Source of the DNA: an uncultured virus (IMG/VR IMGVR_UViG_3300021090_000018)
Taxonomy: Duplodnaviria > Heunggongvirae > Uroviricota > Caudoviricetes
Direction: 5' to 3' (one strand)
IMG/VR virus record: IMGVR_UViG_3300021090_000018
DNA length: 20,000 bases
Part shown: positions 900 to 20,000 of the stretch, piece after piece
Layout of the letters: each line of letters starts with the position of its first letter
How positions within the stretch are numbered: position 1 is the stretch's first letter
The notes under the pieces: generated by a model
The model's database searches: none
What the model was told of the DNA's origin: nothing
The model's input: only the letters and a program-made list of their open reading frames with translations
Program-made: the position numbers and the translations under genes

Positions 900-1111
900 T
901 GGATTGGATTGTGGGCGGCATGACCTTACTCGCGATGGAACTGATTGCCCGGAAGAAGTGGCAGGGCTGGGCGGTGGGCCTGGTCAACCAAGCCCTCTGG
1001 TTCTACTTGATCGTCTATCAACAGCAGCTCTGGGGGCTGGCGTTGCTCACGGCGGTCCTGACATGGCGCTACAGCGTGGCGCTGATGAAGTGGAGGCGCA
1101 ATGCTGCCTAA
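899..1111 (+). CDS. Small 3-TM membrane protein, PnuC/nicotinamide riboside transporter-like half unit
   Basis: Three hydrophobic segments; RKKWQGWAVGLVNQALW and terminal xxxW resemble a Pnu repeat. Confidence 0.65.
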   Translation: MDWIVGGMTLLAMELIARKKWQGWAVGLVNQALWFYLIVYQQQLWGLALLTAVLTWRYSVALMKWRRNAA

Positions 1112-1835
1112 GCCCTACTACGACGAGGACGGGATTACGATATTTTGTGCCGACGCACTCGAGATATTGCCAGCGCTGTCATTCCACGTTGTTGTCACTG
1201 ATCCTCCCTATGGTCTGAATTTGTCTAGCGGCATGAATGGGCGTCATGGAAAATGTGCCGTCTCTGGCGACCACGATACGTCGTTGCGAGATCGGCTCCT
1301 GTCCAATATCGGTGATAGACCAACTATTTTATTTGGCTCACCCAAAATCTCCAGACCACCATGCAGGGCTGTGCTGGTATGGGATAAGGGGGAGCATGTC
1401 GGCATGGGCGATTTAGCATTGCCGTGGAAGCCGAACTGGGAAGAAATTTACGTAATAGGCAGCGGGTTTACTGGACCAAGGACAGGCTCAGTCTTGAGGC
1501 ATTTGGCTATTGCTGGCTGCGTGGGTACGCGAACATGGCGGCATCATCCAACCGAGAAACCAGAAAGCTTAATGCGTGCTCTGATCCGTAAGTGTCCATC
1601 TGGCACCATCCTCGACCCCTTCATGGGCAGCGGCACCACACTCAGAGCCGCCAAGGATCTCGGTCGCAAATGTATCGGAGTGGAGATCGAAGAACGCTAC
1701 TGTGAAATAGCAGCTAGGAGACTTGAGCAGGAATGCTTGCCGTTGTCCATTGAATCAAGTTCAAAAGCGGCATCTTCTGGCGGAACATCTTCTCTGCCTT
1801 GGGATGGCAGTGCTCACACAGAACTACAAGATTAG
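1101..1835 (+). CDS. DNA N6-adenine/N4-cytosine methyltransferase, beta class
   Basis: VTDPPY (motif IV), HPTEKP, LDPFMGSGTT (motif I), IGVEIEERYCEIA; DPPY precedes FxGxG. Confidence 0.95.
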   Translation: MLPKPYYDEDGITIFCADALEILPALSFHVVVTDPPYGLNLSSGMNGRHGKCAVSGDHDTSLRDRLLSNIGDRPTILFGSPKISRPPCRAVLVWDKGEHVGMGDLALPWKPNWEEIYVIGSGFTGPRTGSVLRHLAIAGCVGTRTWRHHPTEKPESLMRALIRKCPSGTILDPFMGSGTTLRAAKDLGRKCIGVEIEERYCEIAARRLEQECLPLSIESSSKAASSGGTSSLPWDGSAHTELQD

Positions 1836-2295
1836 CTTGAACGTGGGCTTCGGCAGGAGTGGGGAAACATCTAACCGGAATCTTATGATGAACTTCCTTG
1901 GCTGGCTTCCGGCACATTTTGCATTTACCACCAGAAAGTTCACGCGCCGTTGTTCGTGCGGCTTTCCATCCACATCCGCGAGCCTGTCCATGCCCACCAG
2001 TCCAGCGCGGATGAGCTTCACGACGCTGATGCTTCGATTGCCATTCCGCCATGCAGAGATAATTGCAAAAGACTTTGCGAGAGTGGAAGTTGCTTGCGGG
2101 ACGGATCACCGGAGAGCCACACCACGCACATTTCTTTGTGGCTTTATTAGTTGGTTTGCAGTGCTTGTTTCCGCCTTGATGATAGCAGCTAAACGAACAG
2201 TACAGTTTATTCTGACTCTGAAATGTACCGAAAGATTTGCCGCACGTTGGACAATGTTTCTGAATCGTTCTTACTTCTCCCTTAAATCTTGGCAT
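1714..2295 (-). CDS. HNH endonuclease with N-terminal CxxC..YCSxxC Zn-finger repeats, antisense to the operon
   Basis: CPTCG..YCSFSC, CAWCG..FCNYLC, HPRWTGG, CKMC..EVHHKIP..NLVVLCEHCH; start placed at ATG 2295 just downstream of an extended -10. Confidence 0.9.
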   Translation of the reverse strand: MPRFKGEVRTIQKHCPTCGKSFGTFQSQNKLYCSFSCYHQGGNKHCKPTNKATKKCAWCGSPVIRPASNFHSRKVFCNYLCMAEWQSKHQRREAHPRWTGGHGQARGCGWKAARTTARELSGGKCKMCRKPAKEVHHKIPVRCFPTPAEAHVQANLVVLCEHCHPKAEKMFRQKMPLLNLIQWTTASIPAQVS

Positions 2296-2301
2296 GAACG
2301 C

Positions 2302-2310
2302 ATTATACCA
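2302..2310 (-). promoter_or_regulatory. Extended -10 promoter (TGGTATAAT) for a leaderless HNH mRNA
   Basis: Perfect TGnTATAAT on the minus strand, 6 nt upstream of ATG 2295; no SD in between. Confidence 0.7.
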
Positions 2311-2313
2311 TAC

Positions 2314-2382
2314 ATTGAGATTGAGGAGAAGTATTGCGAAATCGCCGTGCGCAGGCTGGCGCAGGAAGTGCTGCCGCTGTGA
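2314..2382 (+). pseudogene. Displaced duplicate 3' end of the methyltransferase gene (IEIEEKYCEIAVRRLAQEVLPL*)
   Basis: 17 of 22 aa identical to 1680-1745 (VEIEERYCEIAARRLEQECLPL), with many synonymous differences. Confidence 0.85.
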
Positions 2383-2528: not shown

Positions 2529-2846
2529 ATGATTCAACTCACCCTCGCTGCCGTGACTGTGACTGGCGCCGCGCTCAAAGAGGCGGGCCAGTCGGCCATG
2601 GAGCAGACGGATCGGGAGTTCGTCACCCGGATGCGAGCGGCGGCGAGGGAGATCTCCTTGGCAAGCGGATTTGTAACGGTTGAGAATCTGCGCCTGATTG
2701 CCGCCTCGATGTGCCTCGAACCGATTCATTGCAATTCGTGGGGGAGCGTGTTCAGGGGTCCGCAGTGGAAGATCGTGGGCCGAAAACGGAGTGCGATGCC
2801 GACGGCGCACGCGAGGGAAATCAAAATTTGGCAGTGGGTACCATGA
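2529..2846 (+). CDS. Hypothetical phage protein
   Basis: SD-like GAAGGA upstream; ATGA coupling to the next gene; high-GC3 codons. Confidence 0.8.
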   Translation: MIQLTLAAVTVTGAALKEAGQSAMEQTDREFVTRMRAAAREISLASGFVTVENLRLIAASMCLEPIHCNSWGSVFRGPQWKIVGRKRSAMPTAHAREIKIWQWVP

Positions 2847-3118
2847 GTGATGAGACATGGACACAATGGAAACGCGATCAGCAGGAACGCCGAGCGAAGC
2901 GGCTCCCGATCCGTACCGAGGAGATTCTCCATCTCAAGGTCCAAGGCTATGACGTGGAACAGAAAAGCGACTACCACTTTCGGATCAACGGCATCCTGGA
3001 TCTGTGGCCGATCCACAACCGCTGGCACCTATTATCGACGGGCGAGCGTGGTGGCGCACAAAACCTAGCTGATTTTGTGAAATCAAGGATTCATCCGAAT
3101 GAGCGCAAGAGCGGTTGA
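2843..3118 (+). CDS. Hypothetical phage protein (MSDETW...)
   Basis: ATG 2843 overlaps the previous stop (ATGA); protein-like composition. Confidence 0.75.
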   Translation: MSDETWTQWKRDQQERRAKRLPIRTEEILHLKVQGYDVEQKSDYHFRINGILDLWPIHNRWHLLSTGERGGAQNLADFVKSRIHPNERKSG

Positions 3119-3647
3119 TATGACCGGCGTGGTCAGTGGGCGGTGGACCGTCCTGTCCTATGCCGGAACAAAAGGCAGTGGCGGGATGGCAGTGTGGTTG
3201 TGCCAATGCGAGTGCGGCGAGATACGGGAAATATTCGGGGTTGTTCTCAGAAATGGGAAAAGCCTGTCGTGTGGCTGTTGGCAAAAGGAAGGCATTGCCG
3301 CACGCAATAGAAAACATGGTCTCTTCGGAAGCCGGACCTATGTGACGTGGCGCTGCATGCTTCAGCGTTGCTATAACCCAGACAGTCCGAGTTTTAAGAA
3401 TTATGGCGGACGAGGCATTTCTGTTTGTAAGCTGTGGAGGCAAGATTTCCGAGAATTTCTTCACGACATGGGCGAGCGTCCTGATGGGAAAACGTTGGAC
3501 AGGATTGATAACGATGGTGGTTATTCCACAAATAATTGTCGTTGGGCTACACCGATCGAGCAAGCGAACAATAAGCGGGGCGGAGCCAAGAACTTGGCGC
3601 TCTTTGTGAAGGAACGGATTCGACCCACGGAAGGAATGAATCAATGA
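3099..3647 (+). CDS. HNH endonuclease (CxCxCG / SCGC / YGGRGI family)
   Basis: WLCQCECG, SCGC, M.QRCYNP, YGGRGISVC, TLDRIDNDGGYS..NCRWAT. Confidence 0.9.
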   Translation: MSARAVDMTGVVSGRWTVLSYAGTKGSGGMAVWLCQCECGEIREIFGVVLRNGKSLSCGCWQKEGIAARNRKHGLFGSRTYVTWRCMLQRCYNPDSPSFKNYGGRGISVCKLWRQDFREFLHDMGERPDGKTLDRIDNDGGYSTNNCRWATPIEQANNKRGGAKNLALFVKERIRPTEGMNQ

Positions 3648-4138
3648 CCAATTTTTCGTACCAGTCCGGTGATAGATATGGTCGATATACACTTGTTGAG
3701 CAGTATCCTACTGACACGCGGCGTCAGGCTCGCTGGCTATGTCGATGCGACTGCGGCAACGAGAAGGTCGTCCGGCTTGCGCATCTCCGCCACGGAGTTA
3801 TTGTTTCATGTGGATGTTTCGGGCACGCCGGAAGGCCGAAGCACGGATGTTCACATAACGCAAACGTTCCTGAATACCTCGTCTGGAAGCAGATGAAGGA
3901 ACGCTGCTCAAATCCTGCAAATAAGAGCTATCCGAACTATGGCGGACGCGGCATTATGGTCTGTGAACGCTGGAAGGAAGACTTTGCCGCATTCTATGCC
4001 GACATGGGTCCTCGTCCGACTCTTAAGCATTCGATCGACCGAAAGAATAATGACTGGAACTATGAGCCAGACAACTGCCGATGGGCGACGAGTACTGAGC
4101 AACGCCACAATCGACGTGATGCGGAGAGGATAGCATGA
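3644..4138 (+). CDS. HNH endonuclease (same family as 3099-3647, tandem homolog)
   Basis: WLCRCDCG, SCGC, MKERCSNP, YGGRGIMVC, SIDRKNNDWNYEPDNCRWAT. Confidence 0.9.
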   Translation: MTNFSYQSGDRYGRYTLVEQYPTDTRRQARWLCRCDCGNEKVVRLAHLRHGVIVSCGCFGHAGRPKHGCSHNANVPEYLVWKQMKERCSNPANKSYPNYGGRGIMVCERWKEDFAAFYADMGPRPTLKHSIDRKNNDWNYEPDNCRWATSTEQRHNRRDAERIA

Positions 4139-10715: not shown

Positions 10716-10906
10716 CGCCGATCGTCTTCCACGCGAGCGTCAAGGGCTTCACCTCGGATGAGATTGGGCAATCCAAGCTGTCGTTTATCGTGCCAGATTG
10801 CGATAAAGACGCAGCGCATGAGGTAGGAAAATTGACCGGGTGTGTCCTCATGGTCACCGTGATGCTGGAGAAAGATATTAAGGCTGGAAGGAGAGGACGG
10901 ACATGA
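10712..10906 (+). CDS. Hypothetical protein
   Basis: AAGGAG SD, GTGA coupling. Confidence 0.7.
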   Translation: MTPIVFHASVKGFTSDEIGQSKLSFIVPDCDKDAAHEVGKLTGCVLMVTVMLEKDIKAGRRGRT

Positions 10907-11460
10907 AACTCTGTGAATGTGGATGCGGATCGCCAGCACCAATTGCCAGACAGTCAGGATCGCTAAGAGGCTACGTAAAGGGTCAACCAACCAGATTTGT
11001 CTTAGGGCACGCGAATCGGGGACACATAAGGGAACGAAGCGCGAATTGGCGAGGTGGACGAAAAAGATCAGATGGTGGGTATATCGAAATACGCAAGCCT
11101 GAACATCCACGAGCTGGTCCAGCAGGTTATGTCAAGGAGCACATCCTCGTGATGGAGGACATGATAGGGCGATTTGTGGTTTCGCCAGAAGAGGTCCATC
11201 ATATTGATCGTGACCGAGCCAACAATATCCCCGAGAACCTTTCTCTCTGCAAGAACAACTTTGAGCATAAATTGCTGCATCGGTGGATGGAAGCTCGGGA
11301 AGCGTGCGGACATGATGATTGGCGCAAGTGCGTATACTGCAAACAGTGGGGTGCGCCAGAAACTGTGCGACCACATAATTCCAAGAAATCCTATCAGGCC
11401 ACGGGTACGCACCCGTCATGCAAACGACAAGATTCTCAACAAAGGAGGGCAAAATCATGA
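10903..11460 (+). CDS. HNH homing endonuclease (HNH_3-like) with N-terminal CxCGCG module
   Basis: LCECGCG..RFVLGH, NWRGG..GY..HPRA..GYVKEHILVME..EEVHHIDRDRANNIPENL. Confidence 0.9.
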   Translation: MKLCECGCGSPAPIARQSGSLRGYVKGQPTRFVLGHANRGHIRERSANWRGGRKRSDGGYIEIRKPEHPRAGPAGYVKEHILVMEDMIGRFVVSPEEVHHIDRDRANNIPENLSLCKNNFEHKLLHRWMEAREACGHDDWRKCVYCKQWGAPETVRPHNSKKSYQATGTHPSCKRQDSQQRRAKS

Positions 11461-12522: not shown

Positions 12523-15500
12523 TCAATGCCGCAAAGCAAGCTGTCGGTCGGATACCATCTTTGCTAGTCGATTCTTCTGCTCTCGCAACCGGTCAATCTG
12601 CACCCGTTTCTGTTCACCGGAGAGCACCCGAGACTGTTCAACCATCTTTATTCTAGTATTTATCGAGGACTCCTCGCGCTTCACCCGCTCAATCATCGGA
12701 TAGAGCGCGAGCTTCTCCCGTTCCTGCTCACGAATCGTCCGTGCACCTTCGAGATCACCACGTTTCAGCGCATCACGGTAACTGCCAAATGCTTGTTCAA
12801 CCTCAAGCGCCTGGTCATAAAACTGTGTGAGGTACTTGCTCGATCCACTCGGCAACGTCTCCACGAAATTCCCGGCGAGGAACACGTCCTTCAGTGCCAG
12901 GTTCGGCCTAGTCCCACGATCCACCATCGGGCGAATGCCATAATCCAGGACGGTCGTCCCCATCGTGCCCAGCCAACTAAAATACCCGCGTACCAATGCG
13001 TCCACCTGCACAGGCGAGAGACTGTCCCAGCGCCCCATTGCGAGCTGCGTTGGATCGGGGAGACCGAGCTGCCCCAGCATTCTGGCGATCTCACTCGTCC
13101 GCTCGGTGTAACGGTCCTGCTTCCGTAACCGTTCCATGCCTGGACGTTCGATCGGTTGGCCCGTAAACGCATCTTTATTCGCGTAGAGATCCATCAGCGG
13201 TTTCAGCAGTTGCGGCGTTGGGTTCATGCTCAATTGATTCGAGACGACGGCCGCCAGCCGCTCACCAAAGAATTTGCCCGTCATTTCTTGATCGATCAGA
13301 TATTCCACGCTCCGTTCAGCGATGGTGCCAATCGCGCCGATTTCAAACGGCTTGGGAATGCGGAATGCCACCCCCGCCACCTTAAACCACCAGTTATTTT
13401 CTCTGTCATACGGTTGCCGCTTTTTCCAATCATCATCGTCTTTATAGGCCAGCATCAAGGCAATCGACGCGAGCGCGACCGTCGCCAAGGTGGTACCCAT
13501 TCGACGGTAATCTTCCTTCGTGGCCCTGCCGAGCTTATAGAGGCCTTGCAATCTGGCTCCTGTGAACGGGACCACTTGCGTCAGAATCCTGACAGCGGCC
13601 CACTTGCCAGACAAACTAAAGTCCATGAGATCGCGGGCCCAGAACGTCGCCTCCTGGTGACTCATGCCTTTACTCAGCAGACGCTGATAGAGTGCCGCAC
13701 GGTTCACCTGTTCCCCGCGATCGCCAAACTCCTGATAGGCCTCGAAGGCCGGTTGAATCCGCTGCTTCCAGAACTTCGTGATGGCGCCGGCATCGCTGAG
13801 AATCGAGTCAGGATCAACCCCTTGTTCGATGAGTCGCCTGGTGCGGTCGGCATTGTTCCCGTCCAACATGGTCCCGAAACGCATCATGCCCCCACCAGCG
13901 AGGAGCTGTGCACGGGTTTCGGATTCGAGTCTCGTCCCCTTGATGCCTTCGCGGATATTCTCAAGAGGGTTATAGGAGAGGTCAGCGGTCCCGATCGCCT
14001 GAATGGAATCGCGGATCAAGTTGCGAATCTTGTAGGCCGGGTTCACCGTCACGGCAAAGGAAAAGTAGCGCTTCATCGCTTGGAACGGCTTCGCAATCGC
14101 GCCAAGCCCAGCATAGTGGAGGGCGGCGATGGCATCCAGGAGGGCGGGATCGGTGACACGGAAGGTGACCGGCTTCCCCTGATCCATATAATGAACCAGA
14201 TCCTTCTCCGTGGAACCGGACGGCACTTCCTGCGCCACGCCGGCCATGACGGCCGCATTCAGCGTTTCCTTCGCCGCTCGATTCTTCGCTGAGGCGGTGA
14301 TGAGATGCGACCAGTTCTGCAGGAGATTAGCCAGGAGATCATCGTTCAGATGTTCCGTGCCCCCTTCGAGCTTCTTCCAGGCATATTGATTGACGAGGCC
14401 CGGCTTGATGCCAAACCCCGGCGCGACCCCTTCCTCATGCAACCGATAGAACGGCACGTAAGGCTGGTTCTTGTAGAGATCACGCACCTCCGGGCTAATC
14501 AACCCAGAGTCCACGCCGATCTTCACCATCGCATCGTTCCAACTATTCAGCTCTCGGAGTGCGGTCAGATATGCCGCTTCCCGTGAGGCACCATTCTTCA
14601 TGGTCCCGCGGTTCAGGGTCTTGAGCGCGGCAATGTCCTGCTCGCGGTAGAGGTTTTCGAGTCCGATCGCCTTGAGACGGTCTGCGCGTTGCGCCGCCAC
14701 CCATTCCATGAAACGGTCTTGCTCGCCATGGAGAGCGGAGAGCACTTTCGAGAACCCATTCATGCCATCCGCTTCTCGATAATCGACGCGGTAGGCCCCA
14801 TCGGAATCGACGTAGGGCTTGCCGTACAGCAACAGGGCTTCCAGGGTTCCGTCACCCGCCTTCGTCATGCGTGAGAGAATGTAGGCCTTTTTGCTGTAGT
14901 CCAAGATCGGCGCATACTGATCGAAGAGGCCTTGCTGCAGCGTCTGCTTCCAGGTCTGTTTGAACGAGTCCAGCTTTTCATGCCAGGTCTTTGGCGTGCC
15001 GTGCACGTGTTGCAATGCGGTCTGCTGTGTTTCAGTCAGTGCACCGAGATGCGCGTGTCGAGCCGAATAGGGGGCAGGCGTCTTGTTCTGGATACCGGGG
15101 AACTCGGGCGAGCGGAGTTCGTTGTAGGTCAGGCCGGCTTGACGTCGTCGCTCAAACACTGGCCCGCCCGGCTGCGGGCCGGAATCGTCAGGGTTTTCGC
15201 CTTCATTCTTCAGGAAGTCTCCAAATTGATCTTCTCCTGATGGGTGATATCCCATAAATCTCGCCCATTTCTCGTTCTTCTTAAATGTATACTCCACTGC
15301 CCGCCACATGGTTTTAGCCCCGTCACGAAACCACGCCTTCTCACTGACAACAGGTCTCATGTCACCATTCGATACGATCATCCAGTGAGGCCTAGAAGGG
15401 TCTTTTGCTACCTCCCAATAGCTGTCTCTCAGGTGAATAGATAGCCGTGTAGCATCGAAAACACGTGCAGCGTCTTCGCGTTTGCGCTCTTGGTGGATAG

Positions 15501-18500
15501 GATGCCGATTGATCGACCAGGCCTTGAATCGCTCGAGTGCATCTAGAAGGTTCGCGCTGAACTCATCAATGGTAGACGCTTCAAAATTTTCGGCGTGTGA
15601 CCTATCGTCTGATATCCTTAGACGAAGAGGACCATTCAGGACTGGATCGTGAAGAATTGTTGGCGTGTATGTTTCAGGAATAGAAGGCGAGTAGTCGTCG
15701 CGCCCAGGCTCAGGGGGTACTTGCGCGTCATCTGAAGAGCCTGGCCCCTGGTTGGTGGCCATGGAGGGGAGTGTAGCCGATTTGGGTTCTACTTGTGAAG
15801 GGCTGGTGCCACGTCGCTGTACGGCGGCGCGGTCGTCCAGTGCGGGGGACGGCACTCGACTGCGGCCTCGTAGATTCGCTGGGGGTCCAGTCCCTTTTCC
15901 TCGGCCTCCGTCAGCCACATTTTGACGGTCGAAGGATGGACCGGATTCTGCATCGCGGCTAAAATTCTTGTCAGATAATCCATCTCCGCCGAGCCAAAAC
16001 GGGCGTTGGGCGTCGAGGTCTCTGGCGAGGTCGTCGATTGATCGGGCATGAGGACCTCCGTCTAGCGCCTCCATGAGACGCCGTTGCAGTCGCTGTAATG
16101 TGGCCAGCCCCACGATAGCATAATTCTGATCCAGTTGGCGAGCAAAGTGTTCGGCGCGTTCATCCTTGTGCGACGTGATCACCTGTTGATGGGTCAGTTC
16201 GTGCATGAGCGTTTTGAGCGCCGCAGCGGCCGTGTGTTCAGCCAGCTCCTCCTCGGTAATACGTCCGCGTTCGACGGCTTGCTGCATGGACCACAGCAGC
16301 CCCCAGGGATTCAGAATGACCTGATCGGACCCGCGCAGATTCACCCCATGATAGTAATCATCAGGGCTTAAGCCCACGAAGGTCGGGGAGCCGAAGTCTG
16401 TATCGGAGGCGGACAGGGTATCGGCGAGTTCTTCGAAGACCTCCCTGAGTCGCTCGCTGACCCGCTTCACATAGGGCTTCGAGGCCAAGTCCCTCATCAT
16501 TTCTTCTGGGAATTGCTGGGAGGAATCGATGACTTTTTGGCCTGTGTCTCCGATAGGAGAACCAGCCTCAATCCCCTGTTCAAACTGCGCCATGGTGGGC
16601 TCGCGGTCGGAGTTGCCACGTCGTTCGAACAGCGCCGTCCCTTGATCGGTCTCTTTGGTCTGCATGGTGTCAAAGAGCGCGTCGAATGCCGTGTTGATCG
16701 CCTTCCGTTCTTCCCCTGCTGGGTATGGCTGCTTCCAGCCCCACGGAGTAGGAACTCTTGAATGCGTCCCGTAGGCGATGAAATCGTTGTGCTGCCCCTT
16801 GGCCGCAAGGGTGTCCTCCACGTAGGCGGCAAAGGCGCGAGCGGCCATCTCATGCGGGGTGAGCCAGTAGGACTCGACCCGGCCCTGATCGATGCTCTTC
16901 GCTTCACGGGCGTACTCGGTCGGAATCCGCTTGATCTTCTCAGTACCAGATTGTGCATCAGACAGCATCTTCAGTCGCTCACTGTAGCGGTTCATGTAGC
17001 CACGGAGATCGTCGAAGACCCCTCGCACGTCGCCAGACCCAAAACCGCTCCGACCGCGCACGGTCTTCTGGATCGCACTCAACTTCTCTAGGGCCTCATT
17101 CGTCCAGCGACCGGACGCGAGATAGCGGCGTGTTTTGTTTTTCGCATCACTCACCTTGAACTCCGTCGACAGGAATTCACCCGCAAGAATCTTCGCGGCA
17201 ATCCCGTCGAACTCGGCCAACTGTTCCGCTGTGGCTGGCGCGGCCTTGCGCTTGTAGTATTGCTCGTCAAGTTGCCGTGACAGCCCACCATAGGGACCGT
17301 TACGGATCTCGTTCAGTTTACTCTCAACATCGTTCCGTGCTTCCCCAACGAACCGCTCCACCTTCTGCGCGTCTTCGGTATATTGCTCCGCTCGCGTGAA
17401 CATGGTGTCGATGAGCGTCGTGTAGGCCGCACGGACCTCTTCACGAACCCCTGAATCTTTCCGCGAGAACCCGTGACTCACATAATCGGTCGAGGGCGCG
17501 TTCGCGTCGTAGACCAGATCCCCACGGTCATTGCGGATCTTCGCGCTCTTAGCCTTCTTGTCTTGCCGACCGAAATAGTGATCCGTGCTGTGAAACCATT
17601 CGTGCGCAAGATGGCCGGCTCCCTCCATCTTCGTGAGATTGATCACCCCGTACTCACGTTCATAATGCGCGGCGGCTCCTGTGAGACCGTGTCCTCTGGC
17701 CCCAAACGCGAGAGCCAGTTCACCATTCAGTCCGATCGCTTTCGGTGGAATATGAAGAATTCCAGCCAGGTCGAGAAGTCCATCGTAAGCATGGTTCATC
17801 ACCGCTTGACGGTCATCTTGGTTCTGCCAATTCCCGAATTCGACCGCTCTGAAATTAAAGGTGTCCTTGAAGTCGTTCGCCTCGACATTCTTCCCGTTGC
17901 GCCGATCCTCTCCGGTACGTGTGACGGTCTCAGGTCGTGGAAGAATCTCCTCGCCAAAGTTGGTCTTGGTCTCAATGATCGATTCGGCGTGCTGAATCAT
18001 GTACCGCTGCGCGTCTTCCTCAGTGGGGAACGACTGTTCGACCACCTGCACAATCTTGCGGTCCCCGATCTTGCGATAGATTTCCCATTGCTCGCCTTTC
18101 GCTTTATAGACACGATGGTTGCGGGAAACCGCCGCGAGCGGAATGGCCGCTTCCGCTTCCTCCTTGGTGTCAAATAGCGTGCGCACAGCTCGCTCTGGTC
18201 GACCTGCAAAATCGGTCTTTTTCGTGTCCAGCAGCGACCATTTGCCTTCTTCGCCCGGACGTGCGCTTTTCAGAATCTGTGACGCGACGTAGCGCTTCCG
18301 CCAGGTGGGGATGTCATCTTTCGGCCTGGCCACCTTGGGTCCAGTCGGACCAGTCTTTTCTGCCAAGTCTTTGCGACTTCCGCCAATGTGTTCTCCTACG
18401 TCAGAAATCTTGGACTTCACGCCTTCGATCTGATCCGCTGCACTCCTGAGCGCCTCAGCGAGAATGGCGGTGGGGGCTTTGGGTCCAGCCGCATACGGCT

Positions 18501-20000
18501 TGCCTATCTTAGCGATCGCAGCATCTCCGACTGTCCATTGGCCTGACTCTGGTGCTGCGGCTTCTGGGAGTGTCGTCTGTTTAGGCTCCGGTATCTGTGC
18601 CGCCCTCGAGAATAAGGGGGCTTCGTCTGGTTGCGCTTCTCGCCCAATAATTGGTCGTTCCCCAATGGTCGGCGCCGGCACGTCGAAGCCCAATTGCTCC
18701 GGCCCCTTCGCTTTCGGCGGCTTGATCGTTTGGGCTTTCAGGGTGAACGTGTCCGCATCGGAGGCTTTCGGTTCCTCGGCAGGGGCCGTGGTTTCAGCGG
18801 GGATGGATGCAGCGACAGGCGCCGCGTTCGCCTTCGAAAAATACTCCTCCACTGCCGCATTCGTGGCCGCCAGTCCTTTCGGCAGCGTGATCCCTGATCG
18901 TCGTTCGAACTCTCCACGGAGCGTCTTATTCGAGAGATATAGCCATTCGCGCAGCGTTCTGATAGAAGCCCTATCTCCTTGTTCTGCCCCGGTCCAGGCG
19001 GATTCGAATGTCTCGCGTGTCTTGGCGGGGAGGGCCGCGTAGGCGGGGGATTGTGGGGCGGTTGCTTTCTTCCGTGGTGTTGGTATAGTGGGCGGTACGG
19101 AAGCCGTTGAAGCAGCCTCCGTACCTAGCTTAACGTCACTGGAAGGAGTTACGTCTTGCCTGCCTTTACTTGTATCAGATGCAGCGCGGTTTTCACTAGA
19201 CGCACTAGAAGCTGTAGGCCTAACCTCTTTTGCGGCAAGTTCTGCCACGACACGCACCGCCGCGTTGGCCGCGTCAATGCGAACGGATACAGGGAGATTA
19301 GAGTCAACGGAAAACTCCTGAAGGAACATCGCTTTGTCATGGAACAGCATCTCGGGCGTACGTTGCTCTCGTCGGAGTGCATCCACCATATCAACGGGGA
19401 GAGAACGGATAATCGCATCTCGAACCTTCAGATCCTTGGCCGATCCGAACACCAGAGCCATCACTTGCCTTTGACGTGGGACATCGAGACTGCTAAGGCC
19501 TTGAGAGCGAAAGGACTCAGTTTTTACAAGATCCAGAAGATTATCGGTGCTAACCACGGGGGCATCTGGAGAGCCTTCAGGGACAGAGGACTCCTGTAAT
19601 GGCCCGTGCGTAGCCTCAGCTATCAGAGCTTTCCAGTCCGCATCTGTTTTAGGCGCGAACGGTGATTTCCTGAACTCTCTATCGAGCAATAGCAGTTCTT
19701 TTATGCGGGCGACATCTTTCCCTACGTCTCTTCCGCGATCCTTGATTATCTTTTCTACGGCAACTTCCACACGCTTTCTAGACAACGCCGCCTGTCCGCT
19801 GGTTGCCTCCCGATACCACTGCGCCGTCGCACTCCTGAGACCCGTAATCTCCTGATCCGATCCCTTCCCCTGCGTCTCGTTGAAGTAGCGCCCCCCCCGT
19901 TCACTGCCGGCAATCTCCAGATCAGCCTGTGCTTTTTCCGCCCTGGCGAGGAGTTCAGCATTCTGTTCTGGAATGAGCGTTCCACGTGGAACTTGTGCGG
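12523..20000 (-). CDS. Giant polyvalent (probably virion-packaged/ejected) protein, 5' truncated by the window; LPD5-like, zincin/LPD1-like, second HExxH domain, LPD38-like C-terminus
   Basis: Frame read by hand stays open from 19785 to the window end (>2490 aa). DVGEHIGGSRKD; VEFGNW..AFGARG..AHYE..INLTK..AHEWFH (17590-17604); YWLTPHEMAARAF; MHELTH (16189-16203); FRIPKPFEIG..P.LLKPL.DLYANKDAFTGQPI. Confidence 0.9.
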   Translation of the reverse strand, partial: AQVPRGTLIPEQNAELLARAEKAQADLEIAGSERGGRYFNETQGKGSDQEITGLRSATAQWYREATSGQAALSRKRVEVAVEKIIKDRGRDVGKDVARIKELLLLDREFRKSPFAPKTDADWKALIAEATHGPLQESSVPEGSPDAPVVSTDNLLDLVKTESFRSQGLSSLDVPRQRQVMALVFGSAKDLKVRDAIIRSLPVDMVDALRREQRTPEMLFHDKAMFLQEFSVDSNLPVSVRIDAANAAVRVVAELAAKEVRPTASSASSENRAASDTSKGRQDVTPSSDVKLGTEAASTASVPPTIPTPRKKATAPQSPAYAALPAKTRETFESAWTGAEQGDRASIRTLREWLYLSNKTLRGEFERRSGITLPKGLAATNAAVEEYFSKANAAPVAASIPAETTAPAEEPKASDADTFTLKAQTIKPPKAKGPEQLGFDVPAPTIGERPIIGREAQPDEAPLFSRAAQIPEPKQTTLPEAAAPESGQWTVGDAAIAKIGKPYAAGPKAPTAILAEALRSAADQIEGVKSKISDVGEHIGGSRKDLAEKTGPTGPKVARPKDDIPTWRKRYVASQILKSARPGEEGKWSLLDTKKTDFAGRPERAVRTLFDTKEEAEAAIPLAAVSRNHRVYKAKGEQWEIYRKIGDRKIVQVVEQSFPTEEDAQRYMIQHAESIIETKTNFGEEILPRPETVTRTGEDRRNGKNVEANDFKDTFNFRAVEFGNWQNQDDRQAVMNHAYDGLLDLAGILHIPPKAIGLNGELALAFGARGHGLTGAAAHYEREYGVINLTKMEGAGHLAHEWFHSTDHYFGRQDKKAKSAKIRNDRGDLVYDANAPSTDYVSHGFSRKDSGVREEVRAAYTTLIDTMFTRAEQYTEDAQKVERFVGEARNDVESKLNEIRNGPYGGLSRQLDEQYYKRKAAPATAEQLAEFDGIAAKILAGEFLSTEFKVSDAKNKTRRYLASGRWTNEALEKLSAIQKTVRGRSGFGSGDVRGVFDDLRGYMNRYSERLKMLSDAQSGTEKIKRIPTEYAREAKSIDQGRVESYWLTPHEMAARAFAAYVEDTLAAKGQHNDFIAYGTHSRVPTPWGWKQPYPAGEERKAINTAFDALFDTMQTKETDQGTALFERRGNSDREPTMAQFEQGIEAGSPIGDTGQKVIDSSQQFPEEMMRDLASKPYVKRVSERLREVFEELADTLSASDTDFGSPTFVGLSPDDYYHGVNLRGSDQVILNPWGLLWSMQQAVERGRITEEELAEHTAAAALKTLMHELTHQQVITSHKDERAEHFARQLDQNYAIVGLATLQRLQRRLMEALDGGPHARSIDDLARDLDAQRPFWLGGDGLSDKNFSRDAESGPSFDRQNVADGGRGKGTGPPANLRGRSRVPSPALDDRAAVQRRGTSPSQVEPKSATLPSMATNQGPGSSDDAQVPPEPGRDDYSPSIPETYTPTILHDPVLNGPLRLRISDDRSHAENFEASTIDEFSANLLDALERFKAWSINRHPIHQERKREDAARVFDATRLSIHLRDSYWEVAKDPSRPHWMIVSNGDMRPVVSEKAWFRDGAKTMWRAVEYTFKKNEKWARFMGYHPSGEDQFGDFLKNEGENPDDSGPQPGGPVFERRRQAGLTYNELRSPEFPGIQNKTPAPYSARHAHLGALTETQQTALQHVHGTPKTWHEKLDSFKQTWKQTLQQGLFDQYAPILDYSKKAYILSRMTKAGDGTLEALLLYGKPYVDSDGAYRVDYREADGMNGFSKVLSALHGEQDRFMEWVAAQRADRLKAIGLENLYREQDIAALKTLNRGTMKNGASREAAYLTALRELNSWNDAMVKIGVDSGLISPEVRDLYKNQPYVPFYRLHEEGVAPGFGIKPGLVNQYAWKKLEGGTEHLNDDLLANLLQNWSHLITASAKNRAAKETLNAAVMAGVAQEVPSGSTEKDLVHYMDQGKPVTFRVTDPALLDAIAALHYAGLGAIAKPFQAMKRYFSFAVTVNPAYKIRNLIRDSIQAIGTADLSYNPLENIREGIKGTRLESETRAQLLAGGGMMRFGTMLDGNNADRTRRLIEQGVDPDSILSDAGAITKFWKQRIQPAFEAYQEFGDRGEQVNRAALYQRLLSKGMSHQEATFWARDLMDFSLSGKWAAVRILTQVVPFTGARLQGLYKLGRATKEDYRRMGTTLATVALASIALMLAYKDDDDWKKRQPYDRENNWWFKVAGVAFRIPKPFEIGAIGTIAERSVEYLIDQEMTGKFFGERLAAVVSNQLSMNPTPQLLKPLMDLYANKDAFTGQPIERPGMERLRKQDRYTERTSEIARMLGQLGLPDPTQLAMGRWDSLSPVQVDALVRGYFSWLGTMGTTVLDYGIRPMVDRGTRPNLALKDVFLAGNFVETLPSGSSKYLTQFYDQALEVEQAFGSYRDALKRGDLEGARTIREQEREKLALYPMIERVKREESSINTRIKMVEQSRVLSGEQKRVQIDRLREQKNRLAKMVSDRQLALRH
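15770..15799 (-). promoter_or_regulatory. Putative internal sigma70 promoter TTCACA-N18-TACACT
   Basis: -35 at 15799-15794, -10 at 15775-15770, 7 nt before an ATG (15762) in frame with the giant ORF. Confidence 0.45.
15789..16049 (-). CDS. Nested out-of-frame 86-aa gene inside the giant ORF (same strand)
   Basis: CGGAGGTCCTC-ATG ribosome-binding site; mostly G/C-ending codons in this frame; the giant frame over the same DNA is low-complexity G/R/D/P text. Confidence 0.65.
   Translation of the reverse strand: MPDQSTTSPETSTPNARFGSAEMDYLTRILAAMQNPVHPSTVKMWLTEAEEKGLDPQRIYEAAVECRPPHWTTAPPYSDVAPALHK
19062..19089 (+). promoter_or_regulatory. Sigma70-type promoter for the nested antisense HNH: TTGCTT-N16-TATAGT with extended TG
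   Basis: TTGCTT 19062-19067, TGG 19081-19083, TATAGT 19084-19089. Confidence 0.6.
19156..19599 (+). CDS. HNH homing endonuclease with C-terminal HTH, nested antisense within the giant ORF
   Basis: CIRC..FCGKFC, NGYREIRVNGK..EHRFVMEQHLGRTL..ECIHHINGERTDNRISNLQIL..EH..HH, HTH-like ALRAKGLSFYKIQKIIG; SD GGAAGGAG 19141-19148 before TTG. Confidence 0.9.
   Translation: MPAFTCIRCSAVFTRRTRSCRPNLFCGKFCHDTHRRVGRVNANGYREIRVNGKLLKEHRFVMEQHLGRTLLSSECIHHINGERTDNRISNLQILGRSEHQSHHLPLTWDIETAKALRAKGLSFYKIQKIIGANHGGIWRAFRDRGLL

Follow-up and report, generated by a model that had tools for sequence, protein, structure and literature searches.

We describe an insertion that carries an HNH endonuclease gene at the 3' end of a DNA methyltransferase (MTase) gene in an uncultured virus of the class Caudoviricetes (IMG/VR record IMGVR_UViG_3300021090_000018), of which a stretch of 20,000 nucleotides was analysed and is referred to here as the window. 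The last 22 codons of the MTase occur twice, on either side of a nuclease gene encoded on the opposite strand. We interpret this element as a homing cassette, made up of the nuclease and a resistant MTase 3' end, that replaces the tail of the methylase it enters; to this interpretation we give a rough probability of 0.8. An earlier reading made from the sequence alone (the sequence-only reading) had proposed that an element invaded the conserved EIEE-YCE region and displaced the original tail. This proposal is now supported by eight loci with the same layout, by the fixed position of the junction, by a lysine signature and by uninterrupted homologues.

A methyltransferase gene with two 3' ends

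The MTase open reading frame (ORF) of the window (1101-1835, plus strand) encodes 244 aa and matches Pfam PF01555 (N6_N4_Mtase, E 1.5e-23) and PHROG 67 (DNA methyltransferase). Both motifs expected of an N6/N4 DNA methyltransferase, TDPPYG and DPFMGSGTT, are found in it. The gene and the element at its end are arranged as follows.

1101..1835, plus strand: chimeric DNA methyltransferase gene, with its own body followed by a replacement tail and an extension
1605..1679, plus strand: motif I region ILDPFMGSGTTLRAAKDLGRKCIG, where the DNA block common to the loci begins on its left side, and proposed left homology arm
1680..1745, plus strand: replacement tail A, 22 codons of the EERYC type, VEIEERYCEIAARRLEQECLPL, preceded by GRKCIG
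1746..1835, plus strand: MTase extension, 29 codons and the stop (1833-1835), encoded by the strand opposite the HNH 3' end
2295..1714, minus strand: HNH endonuclease gene, 193 aa, with N-terminal Cys-rich zinc-ribbon-like modules and a C-terminal HNH core
2296..2313, minus strand: linker with the extended -10 box TGGTATAAT at 2310-2302, the box ending 6 nt before the HNH ATG
2314..2382, plus strand: displaced tail B, 22 codons of the EEKYC type and a stop, IEIEEKYCEIAVRRLAQEVLPL, taken as the remnant of the 3' end before insertion and proposed right homology arm

Tails A and B are identical at 17 of 22 residues. By hand count, 12 of these 17 conserved residues are specified by different codons, and 24 of the 66 nucleotides differ. 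The many synonymous differences indicate that the two copies are old alleles and not the outcome of a fresh duplication. The HNH stop codon (1714-1716) falls inside codon 12 of tail A, and the two genes overlap by 122 nt. Checked against the ORFs and the sequence, the sequence-only reading was right about the coordinates of the duplication (1680-1745 and 2314-2382), the count of 17 in 22, the many synonymous codons, the overlap of the minus-strand HNH with the new tail and the lengthening of the MTase by 29 codons. Its claim of a codon contrast, with the second tail resembling the rest of the operon, is only weakly supported. The GC content at third codon positions (GC3) is 0.77 in tail B, which resembles the flanking ORFs, and 0.55 in tail A (22 codons each); the motif I region has 0.72, but the MTase body itself reaches only 0.52, and the numbers of codons are too small to carry an argument.

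Neither an intron nor an intein explains the arrangement. Positions 1000-2700 of the window gave no Rfam match at E<=1. Moreover, the nuclease lies on the strand opposite to the MTase, whose frame closes at the stop 1833-1835, which counts against both an intein and an intron.

The same layout in eight loci

Further loci were sought with the HNH protein in IMG/VR, in JGI metagenome contigs and in GTDB genomes. Eight distinct loci were obtained, namely the window (L009), L004, L010, L011, the L012 type (which stands also for L005, L013 and L016), L014, L015 and L019; L017 and L018 duplicate L004 and L005, and the distant HNH matches L006-L008 lie outside the eight. L019 is a 3.4-kb contig from a metagenome bin labelled as a Methanomicrobiales archaeon, a label to which we give no weight. 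In all eight loci the MTase is intact through its new tail and is physically overlapped by the HNH gene, the stop of which is located within the last 22 normal codons of the MTase (codon 4-20). The antisense of the HNH 3' end extends each MTase by 29-45 aa, with overlaps of 122-195 nt. Furthermore, a second tail beginning (IG)IEIE(E/Q)KYC is found behind the HNH start in every locus, the copy in L015 ending with the contig. The recurrence of this duplicated-tail layout in eight distinct loci is therefore more than chance.

The nuclease and the methylases that carry it do not share the same degree of relatedness. The HNH of the window is 52-75% identical to those of the other loci, whereas the MTase bodies upstream of motif I show 16-48% identity over all 28 pairs; these pairwise identities argue for incongruence between the cassette and the MTase body. 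BLASTN between loci returned a cassette match in 26 of the 28 pairs. Most of these matches start at the ILDPF codons of motif I, and their other end is either the HNH start or the displaced tail. When the window is compared with the other seven loci, the shared block begins at 1605-1609 in five cases, at 1647 with L012 and at 2001 with L015; pairs that include L015 in general start around 2001. Likewise, in a seven-way alignment the mean pairwise identity rises from 0.29-0.42 to 0.56-0.78 at about position 1607 and drops after about 2377.

Two pairs of loci illustrate the edges of the block. L004 and L019 have 83% DNA identity over a block of 799 nt, the right edge of which coincides exactly with the stop of the displaced tail. 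In the same two loci, the MTase bodies share 35% of their residues, and the genes that follow are unrelated to one another. Between L004 and L005, DNA identity climbs from about 50% to 80-93% at the LDPF codons, with unrelated MTase bodies upstream.

Closer relatives of the cassette were found in contigs from two runs of another study, which are 95-97% identical to the window only over 1620-2345. In one contig with 97% identity (run X4), the similarity breaks off abruptly at 2345, within tail B. Compared by hand, the 30 letters that follow agree at about 60% and still encode ...AARRLQQEVLP. The break has the appearance of a recombination junction within the displaced tail, in which case the proximal part of tail B would move with the cassette and the distal part would be the recipient's. 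At the other side, several unrelated contigs in the two runs that contain the whole window match only 1602-1669 (85% or more), and motif I DNA is therefore conserved enough to provide a homology arm. The left edge of the cassette lies somewhere in the interval from motif I (about 1605) to about 1680, which is as closely as it can be placed.

The original tail and a lysine signature

For comparison, 79 MTase homologues were fetched (P0002-P0080; 198-256 aa, most of them 213-225 aa), of which 76 were parsed for tails. The 29-aa extension is present in none of the 79, and the 76 parsed sequences show no extension longer than 18 aa. The stop lies exactly at the position of the stop of tail B in 23 of the 76. 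The closest homologue, P0002 (71% identical, 218 aa), also stops at this place; it ends IEIEEKYCEIAARRLGQEVLPL, which matches tail B at 20 of 22 residues and tail A at 18. In addition, the window and P0002 have in common the rare Cys of GR(Q/K)CIG, which suggests that the window's own sequence continues to at least about 1677.

A single position separates the two classes of tail. The sixth tail codon specifies Lys (AAG/AAA) in all eight displaced copies, and Arg (CGC/CGT, five loci) or Asp (GAT, three loci) in all eight replacement copies. Tail A of the window has the Arg codon CGC where the displaced tails have AAG or AAA. On the simplest reading, the HNH would recognise the sequence coding for ...IG/IEIEEKYC..., and the insertion would split this site. 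The anatomy of the element, its recurrence in different MTases, the positions of the junctions and the contrast between Lys and Arg/Asp are direct observations on these loci.

The HNH endonuclease

The ORF list gives the minus-strand HNH ORF as 1714-2460 from a GTG. We set its start at the ATG at 2295 because all homologues begin MPRFK. Assignment to the HNH family is based on Pfam PF01844 (E 5e-5, 23.7 bits against a cut-off of 21.4) and on PHROG 1271 (E 3e-22). In the family alignment, two or three Cys-rich modules precede the HNH core, and the residues H136, H137, N155 and H164 are invariant together with C125, C128, C160 and C163, which form two CxxC pairs. The family is rare, with 17 proteins at E<=1e-5 among 5.8 billion clusters. 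A sub-branch (P0129, P0130, P0132, P0134 and P0136; 220-240 aa) carries an additional Cys-rich module at the N-terminus.

The AlphaFold model of the HNH protein is of moderate quality (pLDDT 70.9, pTM 0.38). Its modelled core superposes on 5h0m, the HNH of phage GVE2, and on Cap5, with a root-mean-square deviation of 2.6-2.7 over 71-84 columns. A Foldseek search of the model against the PDB found nothing at E<=0.001 and only HNH cores at E 0.03-0.05, and a sequence search of the PDB returned no match at E<=1. Among 50,697 phage records, tblastn with the window HNH detected no mycobacteriophage at E<=1e-5. The phage matches were confined to HNH genes of haloarchaeal viruses and Bacillus phages (27-34% identity), around which no obviously similar layout was seen, though their gene context was not inspected.

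By hand reading, a -10-like hexamer ends 6 nt ahead of the HNH ATG in all four types of linker between the HNH start and the displaced tail (18, 39, 42 and 51 nt). This box suggests that the HNH gene has its own promoter, from which a leaderless mRNA would be made. A scan for consensus promoters and terminators reported neither the HNH promoter nor any terminator; the box was missed because no -35 match accompanies it.

A stop-free frame across the nuclease gene

The plus strand opposite the HNH gene contains a long open frame.

1711..2382, plus strand: stop-free frame of 224 codons, codon-aligned antisense to the HNH gene and in frame with tail B, with candidate starts ATG ATG at 1885-1890

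In each of the seven distinct loci tested, no stop interrupts this frame between a point ahead of the MTase stop and the stop codon of the displaced tail; in the six loci other than the window, it measures 189, 226, 209, 193, 193 and 156+ codons. For a stop to arise in it, the HNH gene would have to contain TTA, CTA or TCA. Across the seven HNH genes these codons number ten, and all ten fall where the C-terminal coding part and the MTase extension overlap; the 138-153 HNH codons that separate the MTase stop from the HNH start are free of them in every locus. The chance of this absence, calculated from local codon usage, is 0.02-0.27 per locus and 1.5e-7 as a product; the loci are not fully independent, and the true significance is therefore below what this figure suggests. 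As a control, 96 of 978 stretches of 145 codons from 45 long ORFs were free of the three codons, a crude comparison in that the longest ORFs were taken, genes or not, and that two of the nine ORFs with stop-free stretches are the cassette itself.

Other properties of this frame are also conserved. The four linkers are all multiples of three and free of stops. An in-frame ATG ATG (GTG ATG in L010) is located 1-53 nt past the MTase stop in all seven loci; it is antisense to the codons of the catalytic His-His pair, and a G-rich stretch lies ahead of it. In L015, the ATG ATG directly follows the MTase stop TAA, with GGGGAG before the stop (887-895 in the reverse complement of L015). Relative to the MTase frame, the open frame is shifted by +1 in six of the seven loci compared, and also in L019. 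At its far end, the stop of the displaced tail overlaps the ATG of the next gene (ATGA) in four of seven distinct readable downstream contexts (L004, L011, the L012 type and L014); L015 is cut off and L019 stands outside this comparison.

It is possible, although on balance we doubt it, that selection keeps the antisense frame free of stops and that translation restarts at the ATG ATG and reaches the stop of the displaced tail, which would restore operon coupling or avoid polarity. If this were true, the bridging frame would lower the cost of a selfish insert to the host operon, and it may represent a new way for such an insert to limit the harm done to its host operon. The open antisense frame is the part of these results most deserving of follow-up.

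Two further observations concern the same frame. The most divergent cassette is that of L015, where only a single TAA separates the MTase extension from the antisense open frame, both being in the same frame. In the window, the frame of tail B stays open for 50 codons past its TGA (2383-2532) and ends by overlapping, in an ATGA, the ORF starting at 2529; the single stop of tail B is the only interruption of the plus-strand frame between 1711 and 2532.

Proposed homing mechanism and alternatives

The cassette would measure about 700-800 bp, at most 1605-2382 of the window, and would consist of the minus-strand HNH gene and the overlapping substitute MTase 3' end. We infer cleavage, the cut site, immunity and the repair route in the following form. 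The nuclease would be expressed from its own promoter and, during co-infection or upon encounter with a prophage, would cut cassette-free MTase alleles between the codons for IG and those for IEIEEKYCEIA, just past the S-adenosylmethionine-binding motif I. The break would be repaired from the cassette-bearing allele, with the coding region of motif I as left homology and the tail copy behind the nuclease as right homology. In this way, the recipient's MTase body would be joined to the cassette tail and the original tail would be stranded downstream. The new tail, with Arg or Asp for Lys in the EEKYC codon and many synonymous changes, would presumably not be cut, and the cost to the MTase would be a C-terminal extension of 29-45 aa. 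As the substitute tail overlaps the nuclease gene, nuclease and immunity would be inseparable. If this mechanism is true, motif I and the strand and helix that follow it would act as universal homology arms, by which the cassette could jump between MTases of 16-48% identity. The Lys versus Arg/Asp codon offers a concrete and testable pair of target and immunity.

Several results weigh against the homing interpretation. The left boundary of the shared block is inseparable from plain conservation of motif I. In addition, L004 and L019 share the whole displaced tail, and this tail is therefore not always the recipient's own. No empty-site allele of this phage was found: none of the contigs of four runs joins 1679 to 2314, although contigs cannot show absence. 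A scan of IMG/VR with the MTase gave three loci with a best identity of 55% and no close phage relative, and BLASTN of positions 800-2900 against GenBank phages gave no match. As to which tail is native, the evidence from codon usage is weak. The sequence-only reading had proposed to settle this question by matching both tails to related MTases; the closest homologue does lie nearer to tail B, but over the 76 homologues the two tails are nearly equal (mean 14.9 versus 15.3 of 22 residues), 35 homologues being closer to tail B, 16 to tail A and 25 tied. Hence, only the nearest homologue and the stop position discriminate between the tails. The sixth-codon Lys occurs in 13 of the 76 uninterrupted homologues and IEEKYC itself in eight, frequencies that are taken only from homologues of the window MTase lineage. 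EERYC is the commonest natural variant (28 of the 76), and the new tail therefore looks natural and not obviously like an engineered recoding. That the replacement tail may be a variant escaping HNH recognition, and with it the assignment of target and immunity, rests on sequence patterns.

The alternative that survives best reverses the polarity of the exchange. Tail A, up to about its last third, would be native, and the mobile unit would comprise only the HNH gene and the tail fragment that follows it, the latter carried along from a previous host; insertion at the extreme 3' end would have destroyed the MTase stop. We consider this unlikely, although several features agree with it. L004 and L019 carry the same displaced tail, which has diverged to the same degree as the rest of the cassette, and the first 32 nt of tail B accompany the near-identical cassette copy in run X4. 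The frequency of EERYC among natural tails points in the same direction, as does the Cys of GRKCIG common to the closest homologue, which marks the window's own sequence up to at least about 1677. However, the nearest uninterrupted homologue has EEKYC and ends like tail B, and the presence of Lys in eight of eight displaced tails and none of the eight new tails would be unexpected if the new tails were the hosts' own. Moreover, a distal motif of the new tails, Q(E/N/G)C..(L/F)S, is common to the cassettes and absent from the uninterrupted homologues read, and L004 and L005 keep 80-93% DNA identity from motif I onward despite their unrelated MTase bodies.

A second alternative regards the HNH and the MTase as a functional pair, similar to a restriction-modification or anti-defence system, with the duplicated tail as an incidental scar of MTase recombination. 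Convergent, overlapping nuclease and methylase genes are a common layout of restriction-modification systems, which speaks for such a pair, and the HNH family is associated with an MTase in every locus that could be examined. Nevertheless, one nuclease block is joined to eight MTase bodies that are 16-48% identical and probably have different specificities, and the scar has the same junction each time. The HNH gene also comes with a promoter-like box of its own, and its product has zinc-ribbon modules of the sort found in free-standing phage HNH genes. We regard a functional pair as very improbable. Least credible of all is the origin that the sequence-only reading had named as one that would refute it, tandem MTase genes with a deletion that left the last 22 codons of the second and an unrelated HNH insertion: tail B is indeed an intact in-frame MTase end with its own stop, but the remnant begins at the same codon in eight loci with different MTases, a repeated identical junction that such deletions do not fit, no further MTase-derived sequence lies between the tails, and the overlap of the displaced tail's stop with the next ATG in four of the seven readable contexts is as expected of an original gene end.

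For annotation, cassettes of the homing type proposed here would explain methylases with odd C-terminal extensions, orphan fragments of gene ends and long antisense ORFs in phages.

Other HNH-type genes in the window

At least five HNH-type genes are present in the 20 kb of the window. A second duplicated gene end lies close to the cassette. The small ORF 2843-3118 ends ERGGAQNLADFVKSRIHPNE, which recurs as the C-terminus KRGGAKNLALFVKERIRPTE of the next gene (14 of 20 residues identical, E 1e-6), and this next gene, 3099-3647, is a PHROG-374 HNH endonuclease. The segment 2843-3647 looks like a same-strand cassette in which the nuclease would read on into the displaced tail. The gene 3099-3647 is followed by a paralogue at 3644-4138, and the two form a tandem of HNH-type genes with overlapping stop and start (PHROG 374, E 1e-60 and 2e-56). 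ORFs of the HNH_3 type are found at 48-485 and 10903-11460. Finally, a minus-strand ORF at 12523-19998, of more than 2,491 aa, runs off the window and contains the large-polyvalent-protein domains LPD38, LPD1 and LPD5.

Comparison with known systems

Among phages, the familiar counterparts are the free-standing homing endonucleases of the T4 type (Seg, Mob), which act by intronless homing. Their genes adjoin the target gene, and the break is repaired with co-conversion of the flanks from the resistant allele. To our knowledge, Seg and Mob genes lie between genes and come without a duplicated gene end. The literature searched, which left subscription journals largely outside its coverage, describes no phage cassette that replaces a 3' end. 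The text of Coughlan et al. 2020 (PMC7282813), on WHO elements, does not mention phage, free-standing, intronless homing, mitochondrial or Allomyces, and a term search in PMC10448857 brought up nothing of this kind on duplications, remnants or methyltransferases.

The nearest published case in a phage methylase is the ShiLan domain, a hidden HNH in a mycobacteriophage DNA methylase (Arsenault, Gosselin, Gogarten 2025, PMC11855218). The host gene is likewise a phage DNA methylase, the HNH of about 195 aa has zinc fingers, its distribution is patchy and leaderless expression is proposed (PMC11855218). The insert frame is also free of stops and continues into the downstream methylase codons, and the beginning of the insert contains a short segment similar to the residues past the insertion site (PMC11855218). 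The ShiLan HNH, however, is an internal insert on the same strand in another frame, thought to be translated within the methylase, whereas the HNH of the window is antisense; nor does the description include a stop or a replacement tail such as the window cassette has (PMC11855218). A hidden insertion of the ShiLan type was considered for the window and rejected, the HNH being antisense, the frame offset and mycobacteriophage sequence matches absent.

The sequence-only reading had cited 3'-end replacement in fungal mitochondrial genes as a precedent, and such cases are on record as mORF gene hybrids (PMC3630166). They are described for atp6 of Allomyces macrogynus and for atp6, atp9, cox2 and nad3 of Glomus (Beaudet et al. 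2013, PMC3630166). In these hybrids, a foreign C-terminal piece comes with the endonuclease ORF, the native piece lies behind it and nucleotide divergence is strong, as in the phage cassette (PMC3630166). The nucleases of the mORFs, however, are of the LAGLIDADG or GIY-YIG type and share the strand of the host gene, with which they are often in phase, whereas the phage cassette has an HNH on the opposite strand (PMC3630166).

A close likeness is also seen to the WHO elements of Torulaspora yeasts, which combine an endonuclease gene with an alternative 3' part of FBA1 (bioRxiv 10.64898/2026.08.13.744650). Homing of a WHO element swaps the 3' part of the host gene for a nuclease-resistant version, and the old fragment, which begins at the cleavage site, is left downstream (bioRxiv 10.64898/2026.08.13.744650). 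The target region differs between occupied and sensitive alleles, and cleavage has been demonstrated (bioRxiv 10.64898/2026.08.13.744650, Osborne, Monnin, Wolfe). Similarly, the phage cassette has a nuclease with an alternative 3' end, a displaced fragment that begins at a fixed site and a target that differs between the two tails. Its patchy distribution, over divergent host MTases and with 76 parsed uninterrupted homologues that lack the extension, also fits elements of the WHO and mORF kind. The differences from WHO elements are several. WHO elements encode a LAGLIDADG nuclease with a zinc finger and occupy the nuclear FBA1 gene of eukaryotes, and the phage cassette encodes an HNH and occupies highly diverse MTases. 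Half of the gene is replaced by WHO elements, as opposed to 22 codons (at most about 47) by the phage cassette. The WHO nuclease gene is downstream and non-overlapping, whereas the HNH gene is antisense and overlaps the new tail. WHO elements form clusters of several, and the phage loci have one element each. Cleavage by WHO nucleases is demonstrated, and that by the phage nuclease is inferred from sequence.

If the homing interpretation is true, homing that replaces a gene end would extend beyond yeast nuclei and fungal mitochondria to phages and to another class of nuclease. By analogy, the phage cassette appears to be organised like the WHO elements and the mORF gene hybrids, and to differ from them in nuclease class, strand, overlap and host.

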